Source of the DNA: Calditrichaceae bacterium | GTDB taxonomy: Bacteria > Calditrichota > Calditrichia > Calditrichales > JBFXGD01 | Length of the DNA stretch: 25,024 nt | Assembly: GCA_050173015.1 (NCBI GenBank) | Contig: JBFXLE010000039.1 | Span: 1 to 25,024 of the forward strand | Reading direction: 5' to 3' | Shown here: piece by piece, positions 7,975-24,008 of the stretch | Layout: each line of letters starts with the position of its first letter | Position numbering within the stretch: the stretch's first letter is position 1 | The notes under the pieces: model-generated | The model's database searches: none | What the model was told of the DNA's origin: nothing | The model's input: the letters and a program-made list of their open reading frames with translations, nothing else | Position numbers and translations under genes: made by a program

Positions 7975-8044
7975 TTGATCTGGAATTATTAGTAACTATA
8001 TTTCTTATTACTAATGTGTTAGTAACTCAATTTAGTGTTACTAC
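7975..8044 (+). promoter_or_regulatory. Candidate sigma70-type promoter overlapped by an array of TTAGTAAC / (G/A)TTACTA half-sites (putative operator)
   Basis: TTGATC (7975)-16 bp-TATATT (7997). Half-sites lie at 7989, 8007, 8019 and 8037, with a perfect inverted repeat TTACTAA-tgtg-TTAGTAA at 8008-8025. Confidence 0.55.
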
Positions 8045-8247: not shown

Positions 8248-9777
8248 ATGAAATTGTTACTGATACGTCGAATAAGATTCCTGTTCATCCTCTTCTATTT
8301 AATTATTACGATGACTGTCGCGGGTTGCAGTTCAGCAAAAAACAATGATAATATTGCGCAGATCAATGATTTTGGGATTACTATCGCCGAGTTTCAGGAT
8401 CGGTTAAACTACAATCCCTATTTACGGGCCATCGAAGACGTTAATGTAGTAAAAAAAATAGTCCTGTCATCGCTGATTGCTGAAAAAATTCTCAGCCTGG
8501 AAAATGAAGAAACATCCGGCGTGAGTGAAAATGTCAATCTGTTGATTCGCCAACATTTAAGAGAAGCAATGATCGAACAATTCAGACGTGACTCGGTTGA
8601 AAGCGCGATTAAGATTTCGGATGCTGAGCTTCAGCATGAATATCAAAAAGCAATTCGGGAAATAGATATTCATTATATCGCTTTTGATTCGCTGAATGAC
8701 GCGTTGAAAGTCAAGTCCAAAATCGACTCGGGCCGCACATATGAATCTGTTGTAAAAGCCTATATGAAGAATAGGGGATGGGGTGATGAACCTATTCCTT
8801 ATAAAAAAATTCGATGGGCAAATGAAGATTATGACCTTGAAGAAAAGATATATCAACTTAAACCTAATGAAATCAGCAATATTATCAAAGCTCATGGTGA
8901 ATACTACCTTATAAAGATTGATAATATAAAAATAATCGAAAAACTATCTTCCAAAGATTATAAAAATAGACTTCCCGCCCTAGAAGACCGCATTCTTCGA
9001 AATAAAATTAAAAAACAGTACAGAGTAGTATATCATCGCACTATCCAAAAAGAAGCGGGTGAAGTCGAGTGGGATAAGCTGAAAGAAGCCGCCAAATTAG
9101 TCTCTGATGAAATAGAATTCAGTCAAAATGATCCCGCGCAAACGGGTCCGGTGGCGTATAAGCCTTTACCTGAAAATATTTATTTGAACCGGCAGGCCAT
9201 TTTAAATGATCTGAAAAATAATACCGCGGTTAATTTTCCTGATGGATCAACCTGGACTTTTCAGGAATTAATGGTTCAGCTAAAGTATGGACCATACGCA
9301 TTTGATTTCAGCAACAGCGGATCATTTATACATTCTTTTATTCAGAATGTCAGGTTGTTAATGGAGCACGAAGCTATCTATAAGCTGGCCCAAAAGAAAG
9401 GATATGAACATAATAAGCTGGTGCAGGATGAATATAAAATGTGGAAGTCTTATTATCAGGCCAACTCATTCCGGCACAATCTGCTGAGTGAATTAGATGC
9501 AAAATTAGCTGAAAAAAATATGCATGGTAAAGATCAATCCATTGAGGAACAACGGCTGGAATATTTTGATGCCAGATTGACGGCTTATGCGGAGAATTAT
9601 AAAATAGTAATATATAAAGCGGTTTATGACACGGTTTCATTAAATAAATTGGATATGGTTGTAAGAAAATCACATTTTGCCAATCGGTTGGTTTCACCCC
9701 GCCTGGAACCACTGATAGGATTACCATTCTGGCAGAAAAAGATAGATTCTTTGTTCAGGCGGTATGAGATTAACTGA
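8248..9777 (+). CDS. PrsA/SurA-like (PpiC parvulin-domain) lipoprotein chaperone
   Basis: Lipobox TVAG-C; IAQINDFGITIAEF N-domain; ISDAELQHEY; parvulin-like IHYIAFDSLNDA...IDSGRTYE and LKPNEISNIIKAHGEYYLIKI. Confidence 0.78.
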   Translation: MKLLLIRRIRFLFILFYLIITMTVAGCSSAKNNDNIAQINDFGITIAEFQDRLNYNPYLRAIEDVNVVKKIVLSSLIAEKILSLENEETSGVSENVNLLIRQHLREAMIEQFRRDSVESAIKISDAELQHEYQKAIREIDIHYIAFDSLNDALKVKSKIDSGRTYESVVKAYMKNRGWGDEPIPYKKIRWANEDYDLEEKIYQLKPNEISNIIKAHGEYYLIKIDNIKIIEKLSSKDYKNRLPALEDRILRNKIKKQYRVVYHRTIQKEAGEVEWDKLKEAAKLVSDEIEFSQNDPAQTGPVAYKPLPENIYLNRQAILNDLKNNTAVNFPDGSTWTFQELMVQLKYGPYAFDFSNSGSFIHSFIQNVRLLMEHEAIYKLAQKKGYEHNKLVQDEYKMWKSYYQANSFRHNLLSELDAKLAEKNMHGKDQSIEEQRLEYFDARLTAYAENYKIVIYKAVYDTVSLNKLDMVVRKSHFANRLVSPRLEPLIGLPFWQKKIDSLFRRYEIN

Positions 9778-9856
9778 TGGGGTATCATCCCGATCGGTGA
9801 TTGTTGAAAATAATGAAAGTGATCAATTCTTTTCCGATAGTTTAAGGAGGAATGTA

Positions 9857-12631
9857 ATGCGAAGGGGTATTTTACTCTTTGTTACAGTTTTATTGTTGAT
9901 ATCGGCTATAAACGCTTTTGCCGGAACAACTGGTAAGATTTCAGGTCAAATTCTGGATGAAAGCACGGGTGATCCCTTGATAGGTGCCAATATTGTTATT
10001 ATGGGCACGACAATGGGCGCTTCAACAGACTTGGACGGTTACTACGCTATATTAAATATCCCACCGGGTGTATATACACTTCAGGCGATGTATATAGGCT
10101 ACAACACAAAGGAAATTTCAGACGTCCGTGTTTCGATAGATTTAACGACAAAAATAGACGTTAAGTTGGCGGAAACGACTCTGGATGCGACTGAAATGGT
10201 TACAGTGGTGGCGGAACGTCCGGCCATCAAAAAAGATCTTACCGCTACGACATCGGTCGTCGGAGACAAAGAAATCGATGCTTTGCCGGTTACTGAAATC
10301 AATGAAATTCTTGAGCTTCAGGCGGGTTATGTTGACGGACATATGCGTGGCGGCCGGTCCGGGGAGGTCGCTTACTGGATTGACGGCATCCCTGTGACAG
10401 ATTCATATGACGGGGAGACAGTTGTCGATGTTAATAAAAACATGGTGCAGGAACTACAAGTGGTGAGCGGCGCTTTTAACGCGGAGTATGGTAACGCGAT
10501 GAGCGGTATTGTCAATGTTGTTACAAAAGGAGGTTCGAACGATTTTGGTGGAAGCATGACCGCGTATATAGGAGACAATCTGAGCTCTCATGACGATATA
10601 TTTATGAATATCAGCGATTTTAATCCCGCGTCAACCTATAATTTCGAAGGTAGTTTAAATGGCGCGATAGTGAAGGACAAGGTCTTTTATTATGTTAATG
10701 CCCGGCACATCTATTTCCATGGCTGGAATGAAGGGAAAGATGTTTATGATCCAAATAATGTCGCGTTTTTTGATGATACAACAGGAACGTGGATACCAAA
10801 CAGGGATGATTCCGGAAAAGGTGAAGGTGATTATGTTCCAATGAATTGGAACCGGAAAAATTACGCGCAGGCTAAATTAATCTTTAAGCCGATGGCTACA
10901 ATCAATTTGCTTTCAAACACCATTTATGATCAGGTTGATTACCAGGATTATGACCGGAATTATAAATATAATCCCGGAGGCGATCTCAATCGCTATCGCA
11001 CCGGATTTACACAAATGTTTAAGATGACGCACACACTGGCGCCAACAACATTTTATGATCTGGGCGTGACTTATTTTATGAAAGAGTACAAGCACTATGC
11101 TTATGAAGATCCCTATGATCCCCGATATGTTCACCCGGATCTTGGCTCTCAGCTGGCATATAGTTTTAAAACCGGTGGCACGAATAACAGTCGTTTTAAA
11201 AGGGAGACATATTCGGTATTAACGAAATTTGATATAACGAGTCAGGTCTCACGCACGCACCAGGTAAAAGCAGGGTTAGAATACAGAAATGACCATTTAA
11301 AATTCCAGGATATCACACTTCAGCCGGTCAATGAAGATTTGTCGTTTGATAAATATCTGAGTTCACCATACATCAGAACGGAAATACCCGCCGATAGTTC
11401 AATTTATGCGGCGCGCTATGATTATAAACCGATTGACGCGTCTGTTTATCTTCAAGATAAGATGGAGTTTAAAGACTTTATTCTCAATATTGGTGTTCGG
11501 TTTGATTATTTTGATCCGGATGGCCAGGTCCTCGCGGATCCAACTGACCCGGAACTCTATGATCCTGTTCGCCCCGAGAACCGTTATCATGATCTCAATG
11601 AAAACGGAGTTCAGGACGCGGGTGAGCCAAATGTAACCGTAGAGGAGAGAAGATCATACTGGTATAAAGACGCGGAGGCAAAATTCCAGATCAGTCCGCG
11701 AATTGGAGCGGCATTCCCGGTATCTGAAGGCGGAAAAGTTTATTTTTCCTATGGATATTTTTTCCAGCGGCCCAAATATGAACTTCTATATACAAATCCC
11801 GATTATGATTTGCCAATCGGAGGGTCAGCGGTTGTCGGAAACGCGGATCTCGAACCCGAAAAAACAATTCAGGGGGAGATCGGTATTCAGCAGCAGATTA
11901 CAGACGATATTACTGTAGATGCCACAATATTCTTTCGTGATGTTCGTGACCTGACCGGAACAACAGCTGAACAGATTACGGTCTTTGGAACAGGGCAAAC
12001 ATACAGTAAATATGTAAACAGCGATTTTGGATTGATAAAAGGATTTATTGTTGCTTTCAATAAAAGATTCTCGGCAGGACTCAGCGCTCGTCTCGACTAT
12101 ACGTATCAGATAGCGGATGGAACCGCATCGGATCCGCAGGATGCGTATAAACTGATAGAGGGCAATAGTGAGCCGGAAGTACAATTGAAGCCATTGGATT
12201 GGGATCAGCGACATACCATCAATGCTTCTGTTAACTATTCAAAACAGAGCTGGGGAGTCAGTTTTATCGGTCAGTATGGAAGCGGACTGCCCTACACGCC
12301 AAGAAAAACGGTTGACATTTCTTCGATTTCAACAAATAACGGCACAAAACCCGCCACATATAATATTGATTTGAAGGCATATAAAGATTTTATGATCAGC
12401 GATTATCGTTTCACGGCATTTTTGCGTGTCTTTAATCTTCTTGATCAGCTTAACGAAATTGAAGTATACGATGATACCGGTAGGGCTGGTCAGACAATAG
12501 ATGAAGTCACTGCGAGGGAAACACTTGGAAGTGACGATACAGTCGTAAATTCTTTGGATGATTGGTTCACAGATGAGACACATTATAACGAACCGCGAAG
12601 AGTTGAGTTTGGTTTAACTTTCAATTTTTAG
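9857..12631 (+). CDS. TonB-dependent outer-membrane receptor with N-terminal CarboxypepD_reg-like domain
   Basis: Signal peptide then AGTTGKISGQILD..TGDPLIGANI; plug motifs HMRGGRSGEVAYWIDGIPV and SGAFNAEYGNAMSGIVNVVTK; GNADLEPEKT; C-terminal PRRVEFGLTFNF. ATG 9857 follows AAGGAGG (the ORF-track start 9764 overlaps the upstream gene). Confidence 0.95.
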   Translation: MRRGILLFVTVLLLISAINAFAGTTGKISGQILDESTGDPLIGANIVIMGTTMGASTDLDGYYAILNIPPGVYTLQAMYIGYNTKEISDVRVSIDLTTKIDVKLAETTLDATEMVTVVAERPAIKKDLTATTSVVGDKEIDALPVTEINEILELQAGYVDGHMRGGRSGEVAYWIDGIPVTDSYDGETVVDVNKNMVQELQVVSGAFNAEYGNAMSGIVNVVTKGGSNDFGGSMTAYIGDNLSSHDDIFMNISDFNPASTYNFEGSLNGAIVKDKVFYYVNARHIYFHGWNEGKDVYDPNNVAFFDDTTGTWIPNRDDSGKGEGDYVPMNWNRKNYAQAKLIFKPMATINLLSNTIYDQVDYQDYDRNYKYNPGGDLNRYRTGFTQMFKMTHTLAPTTFYDLGVTYFMKEYKHYAYEDPYDPRYVHPDLGSQLAYSFKTGGTNNSRFKRETYSVLTKFDITSQVSRTHQVKAGLEYRNDHLKFQDITLQPVNEDLSFDKYLSSPYIRTEIPADSSIYAARYDYKPIDASVYLQDKMEFKDFILNIGVRFDYFDPDGQVLADPTDPELYDPVRPENRYHDLNENGVQDAGEPNVTVEERRSYWYKDAEAKFQISPRIGAAFPVSEGGKVYFSYGYFFQRPKYELLYTNPDYDLPIGGSAVVGNADLEPEKTIQGEIGIQQQITDDITVDATIFFRDVRDLTGTTAEQITVFGTGQTYSKYVNSDFGLIKGFIVAFNKRFSAGLSARLDYTYQIADGTASDPQDAYKLIEGNSEPEVQLKPLDWDQRHTINASVNYSKQSWGVSFIGQYGSGLPYTPRKTVDISSISTNNGTKPATYNIDLKAYKDFMISDYRFTAFLRVFNLLDQLNEIEVYDDTGRAGQTIDEVTARETLGSDDTVVNSLDDWFTDETHYNEPRRVEFGLTFNF

Positions 12632-12658
12632 GGAAGATTTAAGACGAGGAATGTAATA

Positions 12659-15600
12659 ATGAGAAAAATTACGGTATTTCTGTTCATAATTTTGATGCTT
12701 ACAGATCTTTGGGCACAGAGCGGAAAGCAGTATCGCCGGTACAATATTATGAATAAGAATCTGGTTAGTACAGTATATACAAACGGCGGTGTTATCGGGC
12801 ACCCGGTTGATAAGGGACCCCGCGGTGCATGGCTGAATGATAACAACGGTTACCTTGGGGATGTGAGCCCTTTCGTAGGTGCCGAAATTCCTTATAAAGT
12901 TAATCCGGACAGTACTTTCTATTTTCATTCGGTAACTTACTGTCTGGCCGATAAACGGCCGAATCGCCAGGAAAATTCATCAACAGGTGATTTTTGGGGC
13001 TTTGAACCAAAGCGAGGCTATTTTAATGAAACAAAAGAAGGCCCGGCTGTAGCTTTGTTCACAAATCCATCTACCTGGCCGCAGCAGTGGCCTGATCGTC
13101 TGGACGATGTCATCGATCCGGGCTGGGCAGGTAAGTGGAATGGATATTTTGGTAAAGGTATATCTAACGCCACAGAAGAAACTTATTTTGCAATGGACGA
13201 TAATGCGGATGCGGAATTTAACTTCGCCGCAAATAATAAATTCAGGTTTGATTTTAAACCGGATTCCTTAAATACCGCCCGGAGCGGCATGGCGCTGGAA
13301 ATGAAGGTCAGGGCACTGCAATGGCGGCAATTTCTTGCTCAGGACTGCATCTTTTGGTTGTATGAAATTACCAATGAGGGAACTACAGACTATAATAAAA
13401 CAACATTCGGAATGCTTGTAGGTACATATATCGGTGTTACGTCAACTGAGGATGTAAAGGAATATGATGATGACTGGTCGTTCTTTGATGCGGAACTCGA
13501 TATAACATACACAGGAGATTTTCCGGATAATAATGACCGGAATCCGCTGTGGGACGGGCCTGTGGGAATGGTTGGATATGCTTTTCTCGAAAGTCCCGGG
13601 AATGCTTTTGACGGTATAGATAATGATAATGATGCGGATGAAAATGGAGTCTTTACAAATGCATCGTTTTTTGCGCCTGCTGATTTCGACAGCATTCTGA
13701 TTAAGCTGAATGATAAGGTTGTTCTAATAGATAAGGACTTTAACCGAACAATTGTTACAATCACGGCAGAAACAACCCTGGTCAGTATGGGTAAAAGCTA
13801 CCATATTATCCCCGGCGTTACAAAGCTTGTGGAAGGCAATGTCCTTTTGGATAAAAATAATCGCCAGATCGTAAACAGAAACGCGATTGATGGCATTGAT
13901 AATGATCTTGACGGATTGATTGACGAGAATTATTTCCTCCATTATCGCCAAAGAAGACAAGATCCTGCGACAGGACAAATATTAATCGATAAACTTCGTC
14001 CGTTGCGTTTTGTAAATTACAAATCCGGTCAGGGAATGAATGACAATATGATTGACGAATCACGAAGTGACGGTATTGATAATAATGATGACTGGAATTC
14101 CGAAACAGATGATGTGGGCTTGGACGGGCTTGCGGATACTGGAGACCGTGGTGAAAATGACGGGCTTCCAACCTCAGGCGCCGGTACAGGGCTGCCCGGT
14201 GAGCCAAATATTGATATCACTGATGTGAGGGAATCTGATCAGATTGGCCTAACCAGCTTTGATTATTTTACAAATGCGCAGGCTCCGACAACTCTGTTGA
14301 CAGATGATGAAGTCTGGTGGACAAGAGTTGAGCCCGGCGATTTTGACGTACCCAGTTCAATCGTGAATAATGAACCGGTTCAGGGTGAAGACGGAGACTT
14401 TTTCTATGCCAGCGGTTATTTTCCTCTGCTTGCAAAGAGAACAGAACGATTCTCACTTGCTCTGGTTTATGGCGGAGGTCGTGGGGGGCGTGAAGCGGAT
14501 AAGGAAAATCTCCTGAAAAATCGTACGACAGTCCAGGAGATTTATGATTCAAACTATCAGTTCCCGAAAGAGCCCGATACACCAAATCTGACTGTAGAAG
14601 TCGGTGATGGAAAGGTGGTTTTGTATTGGGATAGAATATCAGAATCTTCATTTGATCCGGTATTGAGAGAATTTGATTTTGAAGGATACCGTCTTTATAA
14701 ATCGACGGACCCAAATTTTGAGGATGCTTTTACTGTTACGGATGCAGATGGCAGGGCGCGCGGTTATAAACCAATCCAGCAATGGGATCTGGTCAATGAC
14801 ATAAAGGGGATTTTTGTCGGTTCTGCCGATTTAATGAATAGTGCCAACGGATATTCATGGAATCTGGGAAATGATACCGGATTGAGACATTATTTTATTG
14901 ATACGGATGTGGAAAACGGCCGTACATACTATTATGCATTGACTGCCTATGACAGAGGTGAAGCCGAGAGAGACATCTTCCCGTCTGAAAGCCCGTTTTT
15001 GGTGACGGTTCTCCCAAGCGGTACAGTTGAAACAGGGCAGAATACGGTGAAAGTCGTGCCTGGAACCAATGTCGCGGGATATACAGCGCCATCAATGGAA
15101 GGCGATCTTGATCATCTCGCTGGTCCATCCAACGGTAAAGTGTCCTACCAGGTTGTTGATGAAAAAGCGCTTAATAATAATTCATATATGGTTGAGTTCC
15201 TTGACACAGGTACGGATGGACTGGATAATGACGGAGACTGGAATGTCTTAACGGATGATCTGAACGGGAATGGCAAACCGGATTCAAATGAACCCAGAAT
15301 GGATAAAAATGACCCGGATGAATTCTGGCCTGTAAAAACCTCTTACTATACCGTAAGAGATATGTCTGATTATTCGGAAGAAATATTCGTTGATGACACA
15401 ATTTTTGTGGAATTAAGCAGACAGAATCTGGCTCCTGAATCAATTGTGATCAAAAAGATGGATGGCACGGTGCTCAGTCCCATCGCATATGAAATTAAAT
15501 ATGCCACCGGTGAAATTCGTCCAAATCCGGATGATCCGAACTCCGAAATGGCGCCAAACACAAATTATATTATTGAATACCAATATTATCCGGTTTATAA

Positions 15601-16561
15601 AAGTGTAAATATCGGAGAAATCCAGACGGATCAGGCCGATGAAGTAGTTTTTGATACGGACATTTTTGATGGTGTTCAACTGTCCTTTATAAATTATTCA
15701 TCCATTAATCTTATCGCTTCACAATCAGGATGGAATGTACCGCAGGCATATACTTTTACTCTGGGAGCGGAAGGAATCGATTTTACCGGTGACGCGAAAC
15801 CTGATCTGATCGGAAGAAGAACTCCTCATAATTTTAAGCTGATATTTTCCGACTCGGTCGTTTATAATTCGCTGGATACGACAGTATTTGGAGTAAATCT
15901 GCAAAGTTATCCGATGAACTTTAAGATTATGAATACCACACTAAACAAACAGGTTGAATTTGTATATGGTCCATTCAGCCCTTCAGTCTCTCCCAACGGA
16001 TATTATAAACTCAGTCCGAAGGATTTAATCCTTTTGTTTGAATCCGGTCCTGAAAGTAATAATTATTTTACATATCTCTTAGAGATCGGAGCGATTAAAG
16101 GACAGCCAAGTACGACATTAATGACGACAGGTACCGGTGTTGAATTAACGCTTAATTCCACACTTCCATTTCGAACTGGGGATAAGTTTACATTCACCGC
16201 CGAACGGCCGGTAATTGATGCTGCTAAGGCAAAAGCAGAATTGAGTCAGATAAGAGTGGTTCCAAACCCTTACGTTGTAGCCCATGAGCATGAAGCGCCG
16301 CTTCCTCCACTGATAACGAGCGGGCGCGGGGAGAGAAAAGTCACATTCACGCATTTACCGGCGGATTCAAAAATAACGATTTTCACGGCACGCGGTGAGC
16401 ATGTTGTGACTATAAGTCCGGATAGCCAAAGTTTATTTAACGGCACGGCTGACTGGAATCTCAAAAACAAGGAGAATCTCGATATCGCCTTTGGAGTTTA
16501 CTTCTATGTAGTAGAATCCCCTGTTGGTGAAAAACGAGGTAAACTGGCCATTATTAAATAA
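12659..16561 (+). CDS. Large secreted/surface protein (1300 aa) with Asp-rich Ca-binding-type motifs, an Fn3-like segment and an atypical T9SS-like C-terminal domain
   Basis: Sec signal peptide; four DG(I/L)DN(D/N) motifs; Fn3-like PNLTVEVGDGKVVLYWD...FEGYRLYKS...NGRTYYYALTAYD; C-terminus IRVVPNPY...WNL...GVYFYVV...GKLAIIK. Confidence 0.8.
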   Translation: MRKITVFLFIILMLTDLWAQSGKQYRRYNIMNKNLVSTVYTNGGVIGHPVDKGPRGAWLNDNNGYLGDVSPFVGAEIPYKVNPDSTFYFHSVTYCLADKRPNRQENSSTGDFWGFEPKRGYFNETKEGPAVALFTNPSTWPQQWPDRLDDVIDPGWAGKWNGYFGKGISNATEETYFAMDDNADAEFNFAANNKFRFDFKPDSLNTARSGMALEMKVRALQWRQFLAQDCIFWLYEITNEGTTDYNKTTFGMLVGTYIGVTSTEDVKEYDDDWSFFDAELDITYTGDFPDNNDRNPLWDGPVGMVGYAFLESPGNAFDGIDNDNDADENGVFTNASFFAPADFDSILIKLNDKVVLIDKDFNRTIVTITAETTLVSMGKSYHIIPGVTKLVEGNVLLDKNNRQIVNRNAIDGIDNDLDGLIDENYFLHYRQRRQDPATGQILIDKLRPLRFVNYKSGQGMNDNMIDESRSDGIDNNDDWNSETDDVGLDGLADTGDRGENDGLPTSGAGTGLPGEPNIDITDVRESDQIGLTSFDYFTNAQAPTTLLTDDEVWWTRVEPGDFDVPSSIVNNEPVQGEDGDFFYASGYFPLLAKRTERFSLALVYGGGRGGREADKENLLKNRTTVQEIYDSNYQFPKEPDTPNLTVEVGDGKVVLYWDRISESSFDPVLREFDFEGYRLYKSTDPNFEDAFTVTDADGRARGYKPIQQWDLVNDIKGIFVGSADLMNSANGYSWNLGNDTGLRHYFIDTDVENGRTYYYALTAYDRGEAERDIFPSESPFLVTVLPSGTVETGQNTVKVVPGTNVAGYTAPSMEGDLDHLAGPSNGKVSYQVVDEKALNNNSYMVEFLDTGTDGLDNDGDWNVLTDDLNGNGKPDSNEPRMDKNDPDEFWPVKTSYYTVRDMSDYSEEIFVDDTIFVELSRQNLAPESIVIKKMDGTVLSPIAYEIKYATGEIRPNPDDPNSEMAPNTNYIIEYQYYPVYKSVNIGEIQTDQADEVVFDTDIFDGVQLSFINYSSINLIASQSGWNVPQAYTFTLGAEGIDFTGDAKPDLIGRRTPHNFKLIFSDSVVYNSLDTTVFGVNLQSYPMNFKIMNTTLNKQVEFVYGPFSPSVSPNGYYKLSPKDLILLFESGPESNNYFTYLLEIGAIKGQPSTTLMTTGTGVELTLNSTLPFRTGDKFTFTAERPVIDAAKAKAELSQIRVVPNPYVVAHEHEAPLPPLITSGRGERKVTFTHLPADSKITIFTARGEHVVTISPDSQSLFNGTADWNLKNKENLDIAFGVYFYVVESPVGEKRGKLAIIK

Positions 16562-16637
16562 GAATTATAAATGATTGTCTATCAAAAAATGATAACCTTT
16601 AAGGTGACCAATTGGATAAATTGAGTTGAGGTTGAAG

Positions 16638-17660
16638 ATGAAATTTAAATTTAGATCGCTTGTTCTGGCAATAACAATACAATTTTTGATATTTAGTTTT
16701 GGTTTCGCCCAGAATAAGGTCGGTACAACCGCGGCACCGTTTCTGGGTATTGCTGTCGGCCCACGCGCTCAGGCAATGGGTGGAGCTTATGTGGCGTTAG
16801 CAAACGATGTGACGGCCGCATATTGGAATCCGGGCGCCATCGCCGGTATTAGTGAAAATCAGGTGATGATTTCACATACCACATGGTTTCTTGGTACTGA
16901 TTTTAACTGGATTGGAGCCACTTTTAATCTGGGCAGCGGAAATGCCGTAGCCATCAGCATAACACAGCTGGATTATGGCGAGGAGGAAATCACAACGACA
17001 ACAGAGCAAGAGGGTACCGGAAGATATTGGGATGCTCAGGATATATCCGCGTCAGTGAGCTATTCAAGGGCGTTAACGGATCGTTTTTCTCTAGGCGGTA
17101 GTTTAAAGTACATCGGACAAAATATTTGGAATGAATCGGCAAGCGCCGTCGCGGTGGATGTAGGCTTATTGTTCGTCACTGGTTTTAATGACATGCGTCT
17201 GGGTATGAGCATCTCGAACTATGGAACAGAAATGAGGATGGATGGGGATGATCTTTTAAGACAAATCGATCTTGATTCCGAAAACAGCGGTAACAATGAA
17301 ACGCTTGTCGCGCGGCTCAAGACGGAAGATTATCCGCTACCGATCTTTTTCAGGATCGGTGTGGCATATGATTTAATAAACACGGAGATGAACCGGGTAA
17401 CTTTGGCCGCTGACGCTTTGCACCCGACAGATAATGTGGAATCGGTAAATGTCGGCGCAGAATACAGCTGGAAAAACATGGTTGCGTTAAGGGCCGGTTA
17501 TAAATCTTTGTTTCAGGAAGATACGGAGGAAGGATTAACATTCGGAGCCGGTCTGCAATATCGCATGGCGGGGATTGGGCAAGTTTCCCTGGACTACGCA
17601 TTTGCAACCTACGGGATTCTGGATGATATACAAACGTTTGCATTATCAATTGCGTTTTAA
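16638..17660 (+). CDS. PorV/PorQ-like (UPF0164, FadL-type) outer-membrane beta-barrel
   Basis: GTTAAPFLGIAVGPRAQAMGGAYVALANDVTAAYWNPG N-terminal signature, amphipathic strands, ALRAGY and terminal Phe. ATG 16638 follows GAGGT. Confidence 0.85.
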   Translation: MKFKFRSLVLAITIQFLIFSFGFAQNKVGTTAAPFLGIAVGPRAQAMGGAYVALANDVTAAYWNPGAIAGISENQVMISHTTWFLGTDFNWIGATFNLGSGNAVAISITQLDYGEEEITTTTEQEGTGRYWDAQDISASVSYSRALTDRFSLGGSLKYIGQNIWNESASAVAVDVGLLFVTGFNDMRLGMSISNYGTEMRMDGDDLLRQIDLDSENSGNNETLVARLKTEDYPLPIFFRIGVAYDLINTEMNRVTLAADALHPTDNVESVNVGAEYSWKNMVALRAGYKSLFQEDTEEGLTFGAGLQYRMAGIGQVSLDYAFATYGILDDIQTFALSIAF

Positions 17661-17694
17661 CAAACCACTAAACCATAACTAATTGGAGGACTTC

Positions 17695-19824
17695 ATGAAG
17701 CGTACATTTTTTACTGTTTTTGTACTGCTGATGTTAACAGCACTTCTGAGCGCGCAGACTGTTAATGTCACTTTCCGGGCCAATGTGGCCGCGGTTCCCG
17801 ATACACTCGGAGCTACAAGTCTTGTTCAGATCAGAGGAACAAGCGATTCTGATGATGGTAATATTGATGTTTTGTCTCCCGGTGTAGAAATTGCCTGGAA
17901 CGCGAATACAACCATGTATTTGCAGAATGTGGGCGGTGATTACTGGGAAGGTACTTTTGCGGTACCGGCAGGATCAGCCTTAAAGTATAAGTTTTTCACA
18001 AATTATCACAGTACAGTCGCGTCAGGGGATGAATGGGAACATACCGGCTGGGAAAACGATGTAGCAGAGACTGCGGATCCGATAGTTGGCGGAGAGGCAA
18101 AAACTACAAACCGGGTTCTTGATCTGTCAGGTTTCGCAGGAACGGATACCGTTCTGAATTTACAGTTCGTGAATGGCTGGTCTATGCAGAAACCGGGTCA
18201 ATACGCTACGCCATACACCACCAATGATTCTACATTTGTAATTTATATACGTACCAATATGATGGGCTTTGAAGAATTTGATCCATCCCGTCACGCCGTT
18301 GGTGTTCGCGGATCGAATATGGAAGACTGGGGACAAACAGGTGAATTAAGCTGGGGGCCATCATATCTTTTGACAAAAGGACCTGGTGATGGAAAGGTTG
18401 CCACAAATTTCTATTCAGCCGCAATTCATGTTCCGTTAAAATACGATAGTGCCGGAGTAAAATTTAAATTAGTTGTACATGATACCGTATCCGGTTCTAT
18501 CGATGAAGATTGGTCGTTGATGTTTCATAATTCCGGTCGGGAAGATGAGGTACCCTTCGTTTGGACCGGTGAAGACACGACCGTTCACTGGTTTTGGTTC
18601 GATAATATGGCGCCAATTATTAGGCCTAATGAGGATTCAGTCATAGTTACATTTAAAGCCGATATGAGCAAAGCCATTTCCGATAACGCGTTCTCATCAA
18701 ATGATACGGTAGTGGTAAAGTCCGGCTGGAATGCCACTGCGGATAATGTTTATACATCCGGCAAAATGATCCGCCAGGGTATTTCATCTATTTACGCTAT
18801 TGTTGATACGGTAGTAAGTTCCTTGAATGAAGATTTGCAATATAGCTATTATCTGGTTAAAAACGGACAGGAATTTAAAGAAATTTTCTTTGATTTTGCC
18901 GACAGTGATGGTGGGTCATCCGCTGAAAGAAGAAAATTATTAATGACAGGTTCAACTGTACTTGTTGAAGATTATACGGATGATATTGCAAGTCCAAGAA
19001 GAAAACCGACCTTCAGGAATACGACTCCTATCGATAAAGATATTACGGTGATATACACCTGTGATGTGCGCCCTGCATTTTATCAGGTTAAATTTGGTGG
19101 CAGCACACTGGAAGATATCCAGAGCACCTTTCATATTACCGATCCTGAAGATGTGATCACTTATGGTGTACGTATTAATGGCCCGGCAACAGGTTCATGG
19201 GAAACATGGGGTCAAACACTCTATGACAATGCCGAACGTACGATGTATGATGACGGAACGAATGGTGACGAAGTTGCCGGTGATTCAATTTATACCGCGA
19301 CTTTTACCTATTTAACATCAACGGTACCGGTTCCGACAGTTGGACAGGAATTTAAATTCGGTATCCATGGCGGGGACAACGAAGGTGGATTCGGAAACAA
19401 CCACATCGAAAATATTGATATGAGCGGTGACACTACTTTTATTCACTCACAGTTCGGCAGCATCGATCCTCTATTTTATTCTGAATGGGATTATACAAAT
19501 CAGATGCCGTCAGCTATCGGGGATGATGATCTGGGAACCTTGCCGAAAGTTTACACTCTCAACCAGAACTATCCAAACCCGTTCAATCCCGTGACTACAA
19601 TTACCTATACTCTCGCTAAATCAGGTAAAGTAAAGTTGGATATTTACAATGTACTTGGACAGAAAGTGAGAACATTGATTGATGGCAACGCTACAGCGGG
19701 ATTACATGTCGATCAGTGGAATGGTCTGGATAACAATGGTAAGAAAGTCGCCTCCGGTGTTTATTTCTATAAACTGGAAGCAGGCGAATTCACAGCCATT
19801 AAAAAAATGATCATGATTAAATAA
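17695..19824 (+). CDS. T9SS type-A CTD (FlgD-Ig-like) secreted protein with tandem CBM20/48-like beta-sandwich modules
   Basis: Signal peptide; repeated module starts (VTFRANV, IYIRTNM, VTFKADMS, VIYTCDV); MYDDGTNGDEVAGDSIYT motif; CTD LNQNYPNPFNPVTTITY...IYNVLGQKVRTL...SGVYFYKL...KKMIMIK. ATG 17695 follows GGAGGA. Confidence 0.85.
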   Translation: MKRTFFTVFVLLMLTALLSAQTVNVTFRANVAAVPDTLGATSLVQIRGTSDSDDGNIDVLSPGVEIAWNANTTMYLQNVGGDYWEGTFAVPAGSALKYKFFTNYHSTVASGDEWEHTGWENDVAETADPIVGGEAKTTNRVLDLSGFAGTDTVLNLQFVNGWSMQKPGQYATPYTTNDSTFVIYIRTNMMGFEEFDPSRHAVGVRGSNMEDWGQTGELSWGPSYLLTKGPGDGKVATNFYSAAIHVPLKYDSAGVKFKLVVHDTVSGSIDEDWSLMFHNSGREDEVPFVWTGEDTTVHWFWFDNMAPIIRPNEDSVIVTFKADMSKAISDNAFSSNDTVVVKSGWNATADNVYTSGKMIRQGISSIYAIVDTVVSSLNEDLQYSYYLVKNGQEFKEIFFDFADSDGGSSAERRKLLMTGSTVLVEDYTDDIASPRRKPTFRNTTPIDKDITVIYTCDVRPAFYQVKFGGSTLEDIQSTFHITDPEDVITYGVRINGPATGSWETWGQTLYDNAERTMYDDGTNGDEVAGDSIYTATFTYLTSTVPVPTVGQEFKFGIHGGDNEGGFGNNHIENIDMSGDTTFIHSQFGSIDPLFYSEWDYTNQMPSAIGDDDLGTLPKVYTLNQNYPNPFNPVTTITYTLAKSGKVKLDIYNVLGQKVRTLIDGNATAGLHVDQWNGLDNNGKKVASGVYFYKLEAGEFTAIKKMIMIK

Positions 19825-19855
19825 AGGTTAGCCTCAACGAGTCTATCCTGATTTT

Positions 19856-19895
19856 CTGTGCCGGTCTCCCTTTAGGATGACCGGCACAGTTTTTT
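19856..19895 (+). terminator. Rho-independent terminator
   Basis: Perfect 11-bp stem CTGTGCCGGTC / GACCGGCACAG followed by TTTTTT, 31 nt after the stop codon. Confidence 0.88.
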
Positions 19896-20005
19896 ATTTT
19901 GAATTTTTGAATTATCCGATTGTCGTAACCGAAGGGCAATCTGATAATTGAAAATTTCATCATCATATCCATGTTATTTCATCCGCAAACGATTAGGAGT
20001 GGTAT

Positions 20006-21820
20006 ATGTCCGTTCTGGATTATGGAATAGTCGTCGTTTATCTGCTAACGATGGTTGGAATAGGCTTCTACTTCCAACGCAAAGCGTCCGGCAGCATTGA
20101 ATCCTATTTCCTCGGAAAAAGAGGAATACCCTGGTGGGCGCTGGGCGCGTCGGGTATGTCATCAAATCTTGATGTAAGCGGCACAATGATCAATACGGCT
20201 CTGGTTTATGCCCTTGGAATCAGCGGATTTTTTATTGAAATCCGTGGCGGCGTAACGCTGATTATGGCCTTTCTTATGATTTTTATGGGTAAATGGAACA
20301 GAAGAGCGCATGTCATGACGCTTGCGGAGTGGATGAAATTACGATTCGGGGATTCCAGGGACGGTCATGTGGCCCGTTTGATCGCCGCTGTCTCGGTCAT
20401 CGTAGTGACAATCGCTATGATTACCTATTTTGCCGTAGGCTCCGGCAAGTTTATCGGCGAATTTCTTGGTATTCCGCCAATGTTGGGCTTACCGTCAGAA
20501 TTCTGGGCAGCTACGCTCATGATTGTTCTGGCTATGATTTACACAGTGGCCTCCGGTCTCTATGGTGTGGTCTGGACGGATGTATTTCAGGGAACCATCA
20601 TTTTTGGTACGATTGTGATCGTTTCGTTTATCGCTTTTACAAAATACGCTCTGCCCGAGTCGTTTCTGATTTCGCTGCCAATGAAAGACGGGAGCTATCA
20701 GGCTTTCGAAATGACCCGTGACGCGTGGACAAATATCATACCCCAATGGCAGCTGAATATTGATCCTAATTCGGCTTATTCAATTTATAACCTGTTTGGT
20801 CTCGCTATTTTATTTTACCTGATCAAAGTAACCATTGAAGGCAGCGGCGGGACATCCGGTTATATGATTCAGCGTTATTTTGCCGCGAAAGATGATCGTG
20901 AAGCAGGTTTGCTGTCGCTGTTCTGGACGTTTCTGCTTTCTTTCCGCTGGCCGTTCATCATCGCCATTGCCATGATGGGTATCGGATACGGCGCAACTCA
21001 TTCCGTTATCGGTGATCCCGAAAAAGTGCTGCCGGTGGTGATAAATGAACTGGTGCCCATTGGCGTTAAAGGATTTCTTGTGGCCGGTTTGATGGCGGCT
21101 GCCATGTCCACATTCGATTCGACGGTTAATGCCGGCGCCGCGTATTGGGTCAAAGATATCTATCAGGCGTACATCAACCCCAAAGCGTCCGAGAAAAAAT
21201 TGATGCAGCATTCACGCTGGTCCAGTATTCTCATCGTAATATTGGGATTAGGTTTCAGCCTGCTTGTTAAAAATATTAATGAAATTTGGGGCTGGATTAC
21301 GATGAGCATCGGCGCGGGTATGATTATCCCGATGCTGATACGCTGGTACTGGTGGCGGTTAAACGGTTATGGTTTTGCCATAGGAACTGTGGCGGGTATG
21401 CTTGCCGCGGTTGTCCAGAAATTGTTGTTTCCTGAAGTTCCGGAATATATCTCCTTTGGCTTTGCCAGCGGGATTTCGCTTTTAGGCGTAATTATAGGAA
21501 CCTATGCCACTCCGGCGACGAGCGATTCGGTTCTGCTTAATTTTTACAAGGTCACCCGTCCTTTCGGATTTTGGGGACATATCCGCGCAAAACTTTCGGA
21601 TCAAAAGTTGGGAGAAATAAGGAAAGAAAATAAACGGGATATATTCTCAATTTTCCTGGCGGTACCCTGGCAGTTAATCCTGTTTTTATCATGGATGATG
21701 CTGCTGGTACGGGATTGGACAAAACTGAGCGTTTTGCTCATTTTACTCGTGGCGATATCCACAACGCTCTATTTCACATGGTTCCGTCATTTGCGCCAGA
21801 AAGTTGATATAGATAAGTAA
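20006..21820 (+). CDS. Sodium:solute symporter (SSS/SLC5 family), probably for a sugar
   Basis: LDYGIVVVYL...YFLGKRGIPWW, SGLYGVVWTDVFQG, QRYFAAK and GLMAAAMSTFDSTVN; many transmembrane helices; Shine-Dalgarno AGGAG. Confidence 0.93.
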   Translation: MSVLDYGIVVVYLLTMVGIGFYFQRKASGSIESYFLGKRGIPWWALGASGMSSNLDVSGTMINTALVYALGISGFFIEIRGGVTLIMAFLMIFMGKWNRRAHVMTLAEWMKLRFGDSRDGHVARLIAAVSVIVVTIAMITYFAVGSGKFIGEFLGIPPMLGLPSEFWAATLMIVLAMIYTVASGLYGVVWTDVFQGTIIFGTIVIVSFIAFTKYALPESFLISLPMKDGSYQAFEMTRDAWTNIIPQWQLNIDPNSAYSIYNLFGLAILFYLIKVTIEGSGGTSGYMIQRYFAAKDDREAGLLSLFWTFLLSFRWPFIIAIAMMGIGYGATHSVIGDPEKVLPVVINELVPIGVKGFLVAGLMAAAMSTFDSTVNAGAAYWVKDIYQAYINPKASEKKLMQHSRWSSILIVILGLGFSLLVKNINEIWGWITMSIGAGMIIPMLIRWYWWRLNGYGFAIGTVAGMLAAVVQKLLFPEVPEYISFGFASGISLLGVIIGTYATPATSDSVLLNFYKVTRPFGFWGHIRAKLSDQKLGEIRKENKRDIFSIFLAVPWQLILFLSWMMLLVRDWTKLSVLLILLVAISTTLYFTWFRHLRQKVDIDK

Positions 21821-22045
21821 AAACAAAAAGTTATCCACAAAATATGGCAATAATTAACAATTTATCCACATGTGAGCAAAAAAACTGAAAAAGCTGATAT
21901 TTTTGATAATATTTTTCGTAATCCCTTTAATATTAACGGGTTGCGAAGAAAAAAAAGAAAGAATTGTTGTTTGGTCATCGTTAAGACCGGTTGAAAGAGA
22001 TCTTTTGGATCAGTTGTTGGATGAGTTTTCCACAAGATATCCACA
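21755..22045 (+). promoter_or_regulatory. Cluster of co-oriented DnaA-box-like 9-mers
   Basis: TTATCCACA at 21831 and 21862 (perfect), TTTTCCACA at 22026, and ATATCCACA at 21755 and 22037. Confidence 0.6.
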
Positions 22046-23120
22046 ATTTGCGTTTAACCAGCTTTTTTACGCGCCGGAGGAGGCGCGGACAAATTTTATA
22101 ATCAGCGCTCTGGCGGGAAAGGGGCCGGCTGTTCTGCACGGCGCCAGTGATAATGTGGGACCTCTGGTCGAACTCGGTGTGATACAACCGATGGAGCCTT
22201 TCTTTGAAAAAGAATATCTGTCCGGATTTTTGAATCAGCCAATAGAAGCAAACACCTGGTTCCGGGGCCATTTGTATCAGATAGCGGATCGGGTTGGGAA
22301 TCACCTCTGTCTGGTTTATAATAAAGACATTCTAAAAGACCCTCCGAAAACAATTTCTGAACTGATAGCCGTTGGTAAAACCCTGACGAAGGATCTTGAC
22401 GGTGACGGACGCCCGGACAGATACGCTCTGGCCTGGAATTACACTGAACCATTTTTTGCGGTACCTTTTATCGGTGGGTACGGAGGATGGATTTTTGACG
22501 ATGAATATAATCCGACACTAAATACAGAAGCTACGGTTAAGGCCGCGCAGTTGATCTATGATCTCGCGAACAAGCACAAAATTATCCCGAAGGAATGTGA
22601 TTACGAATTATCAAACGCGCTGTTTAAGGACGGTATTTCAGCCATGATCATTAACGGGCCCTGGTCTTGGGGAACGTATATAAAAAGCGGAATAAATATC
22701 GGATTGGCAAATATTCCGAAAATTGATGAAACCGGATTGTGGCCGACGCCGCTTGTATCACCCATGGGTTTTTCACTGAATAAAAATCTTCAGGGTGAAA
22801 AACTGAATGTGACAGTTGAATTGGTAAAATTTCTGACTTCCAAAGAAGTAGAATTAAAATTTACCGCGCTGGGAAGTTCCATTCCATCGGTACAATCGGC
22901 TTATGACGATACTCTTGTCACGAATAATCCTCTGATTCAGAATGCCATAGCTCAATTAATGGTTGGTAAACCGATGCCTGTCGTTACAGAAATGCGCTGG
23001 ATATGGGATGCCATGCGTCCGGCATACCAGGGGATTTTTACAGGCAGAGTGACACCCGCGCAGGCCGCGGAGGATATGCAAAAACTTGCTGAAAAGCTGA
23101 TCAGGGAAAACAGGGAGTAG
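21903..23120 (+). CDS. Sugar ABC transporter substrate-binding lipoprotein (MalE/maltodextrin-binding-like); start uncertain
   Basis: Lipobox LTG-C; LVYNKDILKDPPKTISELI, FKDGISAMIINGPW and PMPVVTEMRWIWDAM resemble maltose/maltodextrin-binding protein motifs. Confidence 0.88.
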   Translation: MIIFFVIPLILTGCEEKKERIVVWSSLRPVERDLLDQLLDEFSTRYPQFAFNQLFYAPEEARTNFIISALAGKGPAVLHGASDNVGPLVELGVIQPMEPFFEKEYLSGFLNQPIEANTWFRGHLYQIADRVGNHLCLVYNKDILKDPPKTISELIAVGKTLTKDLDGDGRPDRYALAWNYTEPFFAVPFIGGYGGWIFDDEYNPTLNTEATVKAAQLIYDLANKHKIIPKECDYELSNALFKDGISAMIINGPWSWGTYIKSGINIGLANIPKIDETGLWPTPLVSPMGFSLNKNLQGEKLNVTVELVKFLTSKEVELKFTALGSSIPSVQSAYDDTLVTNNPLIQNAIAQLMVGKPMPVVTEMRWIWDAMRPAYQGIFTGRVTPAQAAEDMQKLAEKLIRENRE

Positions 23121-23492
23121 GGGGAGGAAGAGAAGTAAGAAGTAGGAAGTAGGAAGGATAAGAAAAAAGATAAAAGAAAAAAGATAAAAGAAAAAAGAAA
23201 AAAGAATAGGGGATCAGTACCCTACGATCAACACAGCAGGTCATCCCGCAGGGATCTTCTGGTTGCTTGGGCAGTGGAGGAAAGTAAGAAGTAAGAAGTA
23301 GAAAGTATGAAGTAAAAAGGATAAGAAAAAAAAAGATAAAAGAAAAAAGAAAAAAGAAAAAAGAATAGGGGATCAGTACCCTACGATCAACACAGCAGGT
23401 CATCCCGCAGGGATCTTCTGGTTGCTTGGGCAGTGAAGAAAAGTAAGAAGTAGGAAGTAGGAAGGATAAGAAAAAAGATAAAAGAAAAAAGA
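23115..23492 (+). repeat. Tandem direct repeat, period 159 bp, about 2.3 copies (purine heptamer tract plus 73-bp core)
   Basis: 23204-23276 is identical to 23363-23435. Each core is preceded by AAGTA(A/G)G and A-rich AAAAAAG/ATAAAAG heptamers; a third heptamer tract lies at 23441-23492. Confidence 0.92.
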
Positions 23493-23614
23493 GTTGAGAG
23501 TTTAAGATTCAGCTATTGTGTTGTGGATTTCTTTGGGGCGAATTTTCTGTTCGAGTGGATGAATGAGAAAAATAGAAATAATGATCACGAGTTAAAATTC
23601 GCCGGGGCTTTTTG

Positions 23615-23640
23615 CTACTTTTTGGCCATTCAAAAAGTAG
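23615..23640. repeat. Perfect 10-bp inverted repeat (hairpin)
   Basis: CTACTTTTTG-gccatt-CAAAAAGTAG. Confidence 0.8.
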
Positions 23641-23652
23641 GGGGAAGAAGAA

Positions 23653-23778
23653 AAGTAGGAAGTGGGAAGTAGGAAGTAAGAAGTAGGAAGTGAGAAGTAG
23701 GAAGTGAGAATTAGGAAGTAAGAAGTAGGAAGTAAGAAGTAGGAAGTGAGAATTAGGAAGTAAGAAGTAGGAAGTGAG
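23653..23778 (+). repeat. Heptamer tandem array, 18 x AA(G/T)TRRG
   Basis: Units AAGTAGG/AAGTAAG/AAGTGAG/AATTAGG/AAGTGGG in exact 7-bp phase, with a 42-bp higher-order duplication (23695-23736 vs 23737-23778, 1 mismatch). Confidence 0.95.
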
Positions 23779-23861
23779 AACGATAAGAGTATAAGAGTGT
23801 TAGAGTAGGGGCCCGAGTGACATACGGGATTTATTTGAGTCGTCCGATTACACTCACAAAC

Positions 23862-23935
23862 TGTCATCTCGCAGGGATCTTCTGCTTGTGGGGGAATGGC
23901 ATCCGGACAGAGAATAGGATTCCTCCTGAATGACA
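23862..23935. repeat. REP/MITE-like imperfect inverted repeat
   Basis: TGTCATCTCGCAGGGATCT ... GGATTCCTCCTGAATGACA. The left arm recurs as GTCATCCCGCAGGGATCTTCTG at 23240 and 23399. Confidence 0.55.
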
Positions 23936-24008
23936 TTTTGACGTTAGTTGCATGGAACGGCCTGTCCGAAATAAAGTGCGAAGAGGAAGTAAGAAGGATA
24001 AGAACATA

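Follow-up and report, generated by a model that had tools for sequence, protein, structure and literature searches.

A receptor, a giant surface protein and a PorV-like barrel as a candidate SusD-less glycan-uptake module in a Calditrichaceae bacterium

The stretch of DNA analyzed here, referred to below as the window, is the entire 25,024-base contig JBFXLE010000039.1 (contig C39) of a Calditrichaceae bacterium whose genome measures 4.34 Mb and is 97.5% complete. It carries, on the forward strand, three adjacent genes for a TonB-dependent receptor (9764-12631), a 1300-residue protein of an unnamed secreted family, hereafter called the giant (12659-16561), and an outer-membrane barrel of the PorV/PorQ family (16626-17660). 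We favor, with modest confidence, the reading that this three-gene core is a glycan capture-and-import module that operates without SusD, the capture subunit being exported through a type IX secretion system (T9SS) and held at the surface by a private barrel. That the cassette forms a functional unit of nutrient loci is, in our judgment, much more likely than this whole chain of steps.

Conservation of the three-gene cassette and absence of SusD

The original prediction had presented receptor, giant and barrel as a triad of genes, and this triad proves syntenic well outside the window. In a survey of one genome per prokaryote species, at least 398 of the 597 pattern-matched stretches examined were relatives of the giant; the locus counts given here rest on the best 80 of these at least 398 related loci, scored with hidden Markov models (HMMs) made from the five cassette copies of this genome. 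A receptor adjoins the giant in 73 of the 74 loci with enough upstream DNA to be tested, and a barrel adjoins it in 71 of the 74 where enough DNA was present. The order is receptor-giant-barrel in 64 of the 80 loci and receptor-barrel-giant in three, while 13 could not be ordered because of contig ends or fragmentation. The genes are tightly spaced, with a median receptor-giant gap of 17 nucleotides (nt) (at most 50 nt in 61 of 69 loci) and a median giant-barrel gap of 12.5 nt (at most 50 nt in 61 of 64), all measured to the starts of the longest open reading frames (ORFs). The misses comprise one locus where the receptor was not found (L029), a fragmented one (L076), and two (L042 and L046) whose giant opens the contig and has a PpiC-like gene behind it, as in the receptor-barrel-giant form. 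This minority order is itself followed directly by a PpiC-like gene in L035, L051, L055 and probably in L042 and L046.

The record titles of these loci, which come mostly from metagenome bins, name Ignavibacteria, Marinimicrobia/Neomarinimicrobiota, Calditrichota, KSB1 and Gemmatimonadetes/Gemmatimonadota, and further Rhodothermales, Balneola, Kryptonium and Chloroherpetonaceae. In one of them, titled Calditrichota (L023), the giant is 81% identical to the paralogue on contig C4 of our genome. This genome holds five copies of the cassette, namely the one in the window and four others at C4:67326-74656, C21:21027-28058, C6:203405-210939 and C1:101820-109428. The four paralogues of the giant align with the window copy from end to end at 22-45% identity, and the C-terminal domain is common to all. 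Pairwise distances of the receptors, of the giants and of the barrels all give the same pattern, ((C39,C4),C21),(C6,C1), and the cassette was therefore duplicated as a unit.

The locus was also predicted to lack SusD, and the searches agree. No SusD-type family was found with Pfam in the 18 window proteins scanned, and PF07980 (SusD_RagB) gave 0 matches in the genome, this being the one of the four models PF07980, PF12741, PF12771 and PF14322 that was searched genome-wide. An adjacent susC-susD pair, which marks a polysaccharide utilization locus in the strict sense, was not found. Of the 86 genomes of the phylum, 31 contain PF07980 matches, one to three each, and neither this genome nor its sole congener (G038) is among them.

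The receptor spans 955 residues as the longest ORF and matches CarbopepD_reg_2 (74 bits) and Plug (30 bits, cut-off 23.9) in Pfam. By reading of the sequence its signal peptide begins at residue 32, and the true start is therefore probably at 9857. The predicted structure (predicted local distance difference test, pLDDT, 89.4; predicted TM-score, pTM, 0.85) displays the standard plug and 22-strand barrel of a TonB-dependent transporter. Foldseek places PirA first (E 2.7e-31), then PqqU, Cir, PhuR, FepA and BtuB, with a probability of 1.00 to many TonB transporters. The SusC/RagA model TIGR04056 reaches only 71.3 bits against a cut-off of 368.25, over positions 2-207 of its 981. The receptor is thus SusC-like in its N-terminal domain and genomic role, but not a member of the SusC/RagA family.

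The giant and its predicted attachment to the barrel

The giant was expected to be neither SusD nor a recognizable enzyme, and this is borne out by Pfam, NCBIfam, PDB-profile and fold searches. No Pfam or NCBIfam family was found at E≤0.01, and its neighbors in the Atlas are clusters of hypothetical proteins only. By reading of the sequence, the protein starts with a Sec signal peptide that ends in A/Q. Modeling of residues 21-1200 with a 69-row alignment gave a mean pLDDT of 87.1 and a pTM of 0.76, and the protein can be divided into four parts: a β-supersandwich with insertions (residues ~21-635; 12719-14563, forward strand, from the structure model and VIA-align), an FN3-like module followed by further β-sandwich modules (together residues ~639-1194; 14573-16240, forward strand), and a C-terminal domain (residues ~1195-1300; 16241-16558, forward strand). 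Alignments, Foldseek and the model all point to the FN3-like module, and FN3-type motifs are conserved in the alignments of this region.

For the whole model, Foldseek returned only FN3/Ig-like chains (E≥2.1e-4, TMq≤0.08), and the supersandwich surfaced only with the Foldseek-independent search VIA-align, in which models with no clear match typically have a best Z of 7-8. Here the N-domain matches have Z values of 18.6-14 over 232-276 aligned residues, with a root-mean-square deviation (rmsd) of 3.0-3.9; the best one has Z 18.6, 256 aligned residues and an rmsd of 3.3. In many rows the coverage runs from model residue 1 to ~615, and in others up to 766. The matches with Z of 18.6-17 include the N-terminal domains of 2cqs (16-351), 1lf6 (36-314), 1ulv, 5nz7, 9ju0 and 7w2t. 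Among the matched N-domains, which are of a carbohydrate-binding type, are those of glycoside hydrolase family (GH) 94 cellobiose/cellodextrin phosphorylases (2cqs, 5nz7), GH15 glucoamylase/glucodextranase (1lf6, 1ulv), a dextran dextrinase (9ju0), GH116 enzymes, and GH65 phosphorylases, while aldose 1-epimerase-like chains match with Z of 11-13. This is the supersandwich fold that we take to bear the superfamily name galactose-mutarotase-like, an assignment of fold and not of function. The insertions are long and, on reading the sequence, include four acidic loops of the D-x-D-x-D-G type, which, by analogy, may bind calcium. Judging from the model, the giant fits a non-catalytic, glycan-binding surface protein.

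The same matches could instead belong to an enzyme at the cell surface, from a family not yet described (glycoside hydrolase, lyase or phosphorylase-like protein), that cuts polymers beside the receptor and is no binding lid, a reading that we consider unlikely. All supersandwich matches do lie in domains of carbohydrate-active enzymes (CAZymes) or epimerases, only ~256 of the ~615 N-terminal residues align, leaving large conserved insertions unexplained, and the giant has many invariant acidic and aromatic residues. However, the aligned parts are exclusively non-catalytic N-domains, as the ranges given above for 2cqs and 1lf6 illustrate; neither Foldseek nor VIA-align covers the catalytic (α/α)6 parts of these enzymes or matches another catalytic fold, and no CAZyme Pfam family was matched. 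Moreover, the same giant family occurs in loci for different glycans, marked by GH66, GH130/GH2, α-amylase or GH26.

The original prediction had also ascribed to the giant a C-terminal domain resembling a sorting signal. What the profiles and the predicted interface support is a long, divergent tail of T9SS type, the window copy falling below the curated cut-offs for type A and type B. With models run on the C-terminal 130 residues of each of the five paralogues, CHU_C (cut-off 27 bits) matches the window copy at E 0.0035 and 17.9 bits, the C4 copy at 2.5e-6 and 28.0 bits, and the C6 copy at 16.2 bits; Por_Secre_tail matches the C6 paralogue at 3e-4 and 21.4 bits (cut-off 27). No Por_Secre_tail match was found for the window tail even at E≤10, nor one to PF18962 or TIGR04183 for the whole giant at E≤0.01, and the giant hence lacks a recognizable type A sorting domain. 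In the PDB, the family profile finds a single sequence match, a weak one (E 0.05), to the tail of 5m11_A, which is PorZ (PMC11285876). The tail of the giants has about 103-106 residues, and that of the window copy about 103 from its V-V-P-N-P-Y stretch to the end; the available part of the same report gives 96 and 108 residues for the non-cleaved tails of PorZ and PorU and 67-88 for processed ones (PMC11285876), and the giant falls in the non-cleaved range.

A profile of the tail itself (last 150 residues) is matched in all 86 genomes of the phylum at E≤1e-10, with 1-29 matches each. It is not fully specific: five of its eight matches in this genome are the cassette giants, which score 131-193 bits over the whole profile, and the other three cover only its second half. 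These, like ordinary sorting tails, score at most 65 bits, and the cargo encoded next to the barrel 26.7.

The gene directly after the giant was predicted to encode a PorV-like barrel, and its 344-residue product (probable start 16638) indeed matches the PorV/PorQ family model NF033709 with 232.9 bits (cut-off 90) over positions 1-326 of 326. It falls below both equivalog models, with 96.5 bits for PorV (NF033710, cut-off 250) and 110.1 for PorQ (NF033711, cut-off 220). A PorP/SprF model does not appear among its Pfam and NCBIfam matches at E≤0.01, no dedicated search having been run.

Using residues 29-344 of the barrel and the last 150 residues of the giant, each with a 70-row alignment from the same loci, we predicted the structure of their complex. 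All three runs scored 0.90, against 0.00 for the best of three controls. Of 80 solved complexes, 58 reach this mark, as do two of 110 mismatched pairs; these counts apply only roughly here, the alignments being self-supplied. The runs share at least 73% of their contacts, and the pLDDT of the partner is at least 68. On the tail side, the predicted interface involves giant residues 1199-1204, 1240-1249, 1270-1286 and 1291-1300, thus including the family-invariant V-V-P-N-P-Y (1199-1204) and the last strand (1291-1300). On the barrel side, residues 29-42 at the mature N-terminus take part, as do patches distributed over the sequence. The predicted complex shows that the giant's tail fits the private barrel as a cargo fits PorV, permanence of the binding not being implied. 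We consider anchoring of the giant by the barrel moderately likely.

Alternatively, the giant could be ordinary T9SS cargo, its tail cleaved and the protein released or attached to lipopolysaccharide, while the barrel would be either a dedicated but transient shuttle or a channel of FadL type in its own right. According to the parts of two reports at hand, PorV acts as a shuttle and its family resembles FadL (PMC5562754; PMC12578637), dedicated shuttles are described for type B tails in the available text of a third (PMC12618676), and PorU is encoded in this genome. Against this stand the length of the tail, the strict conservation of one private barrel per giant, and a confident predicted interface built on family-invariant residues, and we hold this explanation to be less probable again than an enzymatic giant.

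At the other end of the giant (12659-12730), and likewise in the barrel (16626-16720) and in the cargo that follows it (17683-17770), predicted cleavage of the signal peptide at A/Q leaves an N-terminal glutamine. N-terminal pyroglutamate occurs in Bacteroidota surface proteins, to which these A/Q sites may be linked.

Genomic context, proposed mechanism and companions of the cassette

Several of the cassettes lie among genes for glycan use. The C4 copy (C4:58400-90000; L001/L002) looks like part of a dextran locus: its neighbors are a pair of GH66 enzymes, of which one bears a T9SS tail, a T9SS cargo with a weak X25 match, two symporters of the sodium:solute type, a sigma-54 response regulator/two-component system, and a solute-binding protein with a histidine kinase. 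The C21 copy has LacI, a small T9SS cargo, a PpiC-like gene after the barrel, an ATP-binding cassette (ABC) system, GH130 and GH2. The C1 copy (C1:96488-110295; L006) is flanked by a 1244-residue Reg_prop/Y_Y_Y histidine kinase and two LytTR response regulators; the sensors of hybrid two-component systems in Bacteroides are of this kind. In the 80 loci, the two nearest complete ORFs on each side amount to 208, of which 199 were scanned, leaving out nine over 1000 residues. The Pfam counts among the 199 are 49 for Por_Secre_tail, 16 for Rotamase, 14 for CBM_20, 13 for Response_reg, 11 for Alpha-amylase, 10 for GDSL lipase, six for LacI, five for SSF, four for GH26 and two for GH66. This sample leans to orthologues of the window giant and fits an α-glucan locus. 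We infer, since the contig ends before any enzyme gene, that the substrate of the window locus is probably α-glucan or maltodextrin.

The genome was also expected to encode a core T9SS, and SprA (868 bits summed), PorU (833 bits) and a true PorV (C6:176675-177703; 270.6 bits, cut-off 250) were all matched outside the window. In total, 13 PorV-family matches exceed the cut-off. Some of these barrels sit directly behind tail proteins in the absence of a TonB receptor: a second PorU-like frame, of 1694 residues, precedes a PorV-family barrel at C6:147554-152874, and receptor-less groups also lie at C1:355550-356892 and C3:205563-207733, examples being a 4292-residue frame that precedes one barrel and a 497-residue frame that precedes two. 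Private barrels for T9SS-tail proteins thus look like a general habit of this organism.

These pairs are what one would expect if giant and barrel, in the manner of PorZ-PorQ, formed a T9SS module for attachment or scaffolding that is specific to the locus and docks or processes secreted enzymes and binding proteins at the surface, the receptor being co-regulated but no physical partner. Among the flanking genes, those for cargo with a type A tail are the most frequent, one such gene follows the barrel in the window, and the only PDB match of the giant profile is a PorZ tail. Yet the receptor, at a median of 17 nt, is the most constant neighbor of the giant and was duplicated together with giant and barrel, the giant belongs to neither the PorU nor the PorZ family, and the cargo genes differ between loci where the trio is constant. 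We regard this as the least improbable of the alternatives, though still unlikely.

In the SusD-less capture-and-import module that we favor, the giant would cross the inner membrane by the Sec route and then, with its C-terminal domain as guide, the outer membrane through the T9SS. Its tail would then be passed to the cassette barrel, in place of the housekeeping PorV, and stay bound, thereby keeping the giant on the surface with no lipid anchor, as PorQ holds PorZ. The N-terminal supersandwich would bind glycan chains, here probably α-glucan or maltodextrin, and the giant would hand them to the adjacent TonB-dependent receptor for import into the periplasm, where the symporter and the MalEF-like ABC system encoded downstream would take over. 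The parvulin-type lipoprotein encoded ahead of the receptor may chaperone large outer-membrane clients, and the type A cargo behind the barrel may be an accessory surface binding protein, as an Atlas lead to CBM48/CBM20/X25 clusters suggests. Direct cooperation of giant and receptor is the weakest link of this mechanism. The original proposal of an alternative outer-membrane uptake complex gains partial support from the synteny, the absence of SusD, the T9SS genes and the predicted binding of tail and barrel; its chaperone is only loosely linked to the trio.

A number of observations nevertheless pull away from this mechanism. The 80 loci are the best matches to the window giant and so are biased to its orthologues. 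No SusC/RagA chain occurs among the 50 Foldseek matches listed for the receptor model, which resembles classical TonB transporters. The supersandwich does not prove sugar binding, the periplasmic domain of YidC (3blc) also matching the giant model with Z 12.4, and the N-terminal residues that remain unaligned leave room for an unrecognized active site. Neither of the curated T9SS tail models accepts the window tail at its cut-off. Complexes of sorting tails with PorV loops have been solved by cryo-EM, as the portion of the report at hand indicates (PMC10994853), and because of them the success of the barrel-tail prediction may reflect likeness to solved complexes and not specific, lasting binding; nor does the predicted complex reveal which face of the barrel carries the tail. 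Around the C1 cassette, M16 peptidases lie further upstream, and the C6 cassette has a T9SS cargo and no sugar genes in view before its contig ends. No glycoside hydrolase was found in the window, with the contig ending, and the proposed substrate rests on transporters below their cut-offs, an Atlas lead and neighbors in other genomes.

Within the window, the trio is part of a unit of five co-oriented ORFs on the forward strand that fill 8248-19824, with successive gaps or overlaps of -14, 27, 64 and 22 nt. As the original prediction had noted, the unit is closed by a strong intrinsic terminator (19856-19899, forward strand): the stem at 19856-19889, followed by a T-run, folds with -25.5 kcal/mol (z -7.47), and none of 200 shuffled sequences folds as well. 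A scan for hairpins with a perfect stem and a loop of 3-8 missed it, presumably because the stem-loop does not fit this pattern.

The first gene (8248-9777, forward strand) encodes a 509-residue, SurA-like lipoprotein of the PpiC/parvulin type. Its match to Rotamase_2 is marginal (E 6.2e-6; 27.5 bits, cut-off 27), those to SurA_N_2 and SurA_N_3 are weak, and the PrsA equivalogs stay far under their cut-offs. The N-terminus reads as a lipoprotein signal with the lipobox V-A-G-C, and the protein is presumed to be a periplasmic chaperone. A PpiC-like gene is found somewhere within ~8 kb in 26 of the 80 loci and in two of the five cassettes of this genome; in the C21 cassette, it is a paralogue of the 509-residue protein that follows the barrel. 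The dedicated chaperone of the original prediction is therefore present in the window in the form of a marginal match, and across loci it is a frequent but not a fixed companion of the trio.

The fifth gene (17683-19824, forward strand) encodes a 713-residue T9SS cargo with an ordinary type A sorting domain, matched by TIGR04183 (46.6 bits, cut-off 23), Por_Secre_tail and choice_anchor_X. The sorting tail is placed at residues 630-710, and measured like that of the giant it has ~84 residues. Its BLAST matches in this genome run through the tail alone, with neither a paralogue outside the tail nor internal repeats found, and no PDB sequence match was found. The body belongs to no family; its nearest Atlas clusters carry CBM_48, CBM_20 or X25 (score 0.91, 144 shared features), a lead according to which the body is possibly made of starch-binding modules.

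Downstream of the terminator, genes for inner-membrane sugar transporters occupy 20006-24899 on the forward strand by Pfam and NCBIfam matches. They encode a sodium:solute symporter (20006-21820), a MalE-like binding protein (21903-23120; 153 bits, under the equivalog cut-off of 291) and a MalF-like permease (23952-24899; 190 bits, under the equivalog cut-off of 392). The predicted symporter and MalE/MalF-like transporters are thus found, the latter two below their equivalog cut-offs. The contig stops at 25024, truncating the locus just past the MalF-like gene. Between the MalE-like and the MalF-like gene, a gap of 830 nt is packed (23112-23890, forward strand) with purine-rich repeats and has a GC skew of 0.44; it contains an array with a 14-nt period (a 58-nt register in 12 copies), two 159-nt repeats that are 89% identical, and three copies of a 26-nt element with a short GC hairpin.

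At the other end of the window, the genes upstream of 7719 are redox and methylase genes unrelated to the five-gene unit. About 200 nt upstream of the first gene of the unit lie two tandem 25-nt units (7989-8043), direct repeats that each hold an inverted TTAGTAA/TTACTAA pair and form a candidate operator, that is, a putative binding site for a regulator. No regulator gene was found within the window.

Comparison with known systems

In Bacteroidota, the accepted model for the capture of glycans is SusC/SusD, but SusD is scarce or absent in large sister lineages of environmental importance. A conserved alternative present in several copies, if real, would explain how such SusD-poor lineages take up polymers. 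It would also offer a marker trio for annotating loci resembling polysaccharide utilization loci outside Bacteroidia, assign to the T9SS and PorV-family barrels a new task in importer assembly, and give a name and a testable function to a family of 1000-1300 residues now labeled hypothetical. Tentatively, with a probability that we put just short of even, the trio may represent a third, phylum-spanning design of TonB importer, in which the T9SS and not lipidation delivers the capture subunit and a barrel holds it against the transporter. It would then be the main glycan-import machine of the SusD-poor lineages of the Fibrobacterota-Chlorobiota-Bacteroidota (FCB) group (Calditrichota, Ignavibacteria, ocean Marinimicrobia/SAR406, KSB1 and Gemmatimonadota), and maybe as old as SusCD or older.

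The pieces have precedents, and their combination as a fixed trio appears to be undescribed: we could not find a published account of it, judging by titles and the beginnings of abstracts, subscription journals and supplements being outside our view. In the available part of the Caldithrix genome paper (PMC5317091), SusC and SusD have 0 occurrences and TonB-dependent receptors are mentioned only for B12 and thiamine.

For the binding of giant and barrel, the closest parallels are PorQ-PorZ and PorV-PorU of Porphyromonas gingivalis, in which, as the accessible text of two reports describes, a surface protein with a long uncleaved tail is held by a barrel of the PorV/PorQ family (PMC5562754; PMC11285876). 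The barrel family, the tail length, the weak PorZ-tail match and the predicted binding are alike here. However, our barrel reaches neither equivalog, the giant is unrelated to PorZ and PorU outside the tail, and the pair occurs in several copies, joined to a TonB receptor in nutrient loci, and does not belong to the secretion machine.

Type B cargo proteins (SprB-SprF, PG1035-PorP) need their own adjacent PorP/SprF-like barrel for secretion and anchorage, according to the portions of two studies available (PMC9143113; PMC12618676). They too are large surface proteins encoded beside a barrel of their own, and the C4 tail just passes CHU_C (28 against 27 bits). In contrast, the barrel here is of the PorV/PorQ family, the window tail lies under the CHU_C cut-off, and the described pairs have no TonB receptor, as far as the abstracts show.

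Another precedent concerns a small barrel that bridges a surface protein and a big barrel. The Bacteroides BAM complex offers it in BamG-BamH, where a FadL-like barrel of 14 strands uses its extracellular loops to bind a surface-exposed protein and also packs against another large barrel, as stated in the part of the report at hand (PMC12578637). This complex differs from the trio in acting in outer-membrane protein assembly, with no T9SS tail in the part described.

TonB transporters with surface partners other than SusD appear by their entry titles among the Foldseek matches of the receptor (8p98_A, 9gbc_A). Beyond these titles, we take BtuB-BtuG and XusA-XusB of Bacteroides to pair a TonB transporter with a surface capture protein. 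The likeness lies in a classical-fold transporter with a surface-exposed capture protein; the partners there, presumably small lipoproteins for vitamins or siderophores, contrast with a non-lipidated protein of 1300 residues that has a T9SS-type tail and its own barrel.

With SusC/SusD (RagA/RagB), finally, the trio shares a receptor with a carboxypeptidase-regulatory-like N-domain encoded immediately before its surface partner, and the occurrence of several copies per genome in loci with glycoside hydrolases, sugar transporters and sensors. The receptor differs in its score against the SusC/RagA model (71 against 368 bits), and the partner, which is neither SusD nor a lipoprotein, is three times larger, all-β, and equipped with a T9SS-type tail and a barrel of its own.

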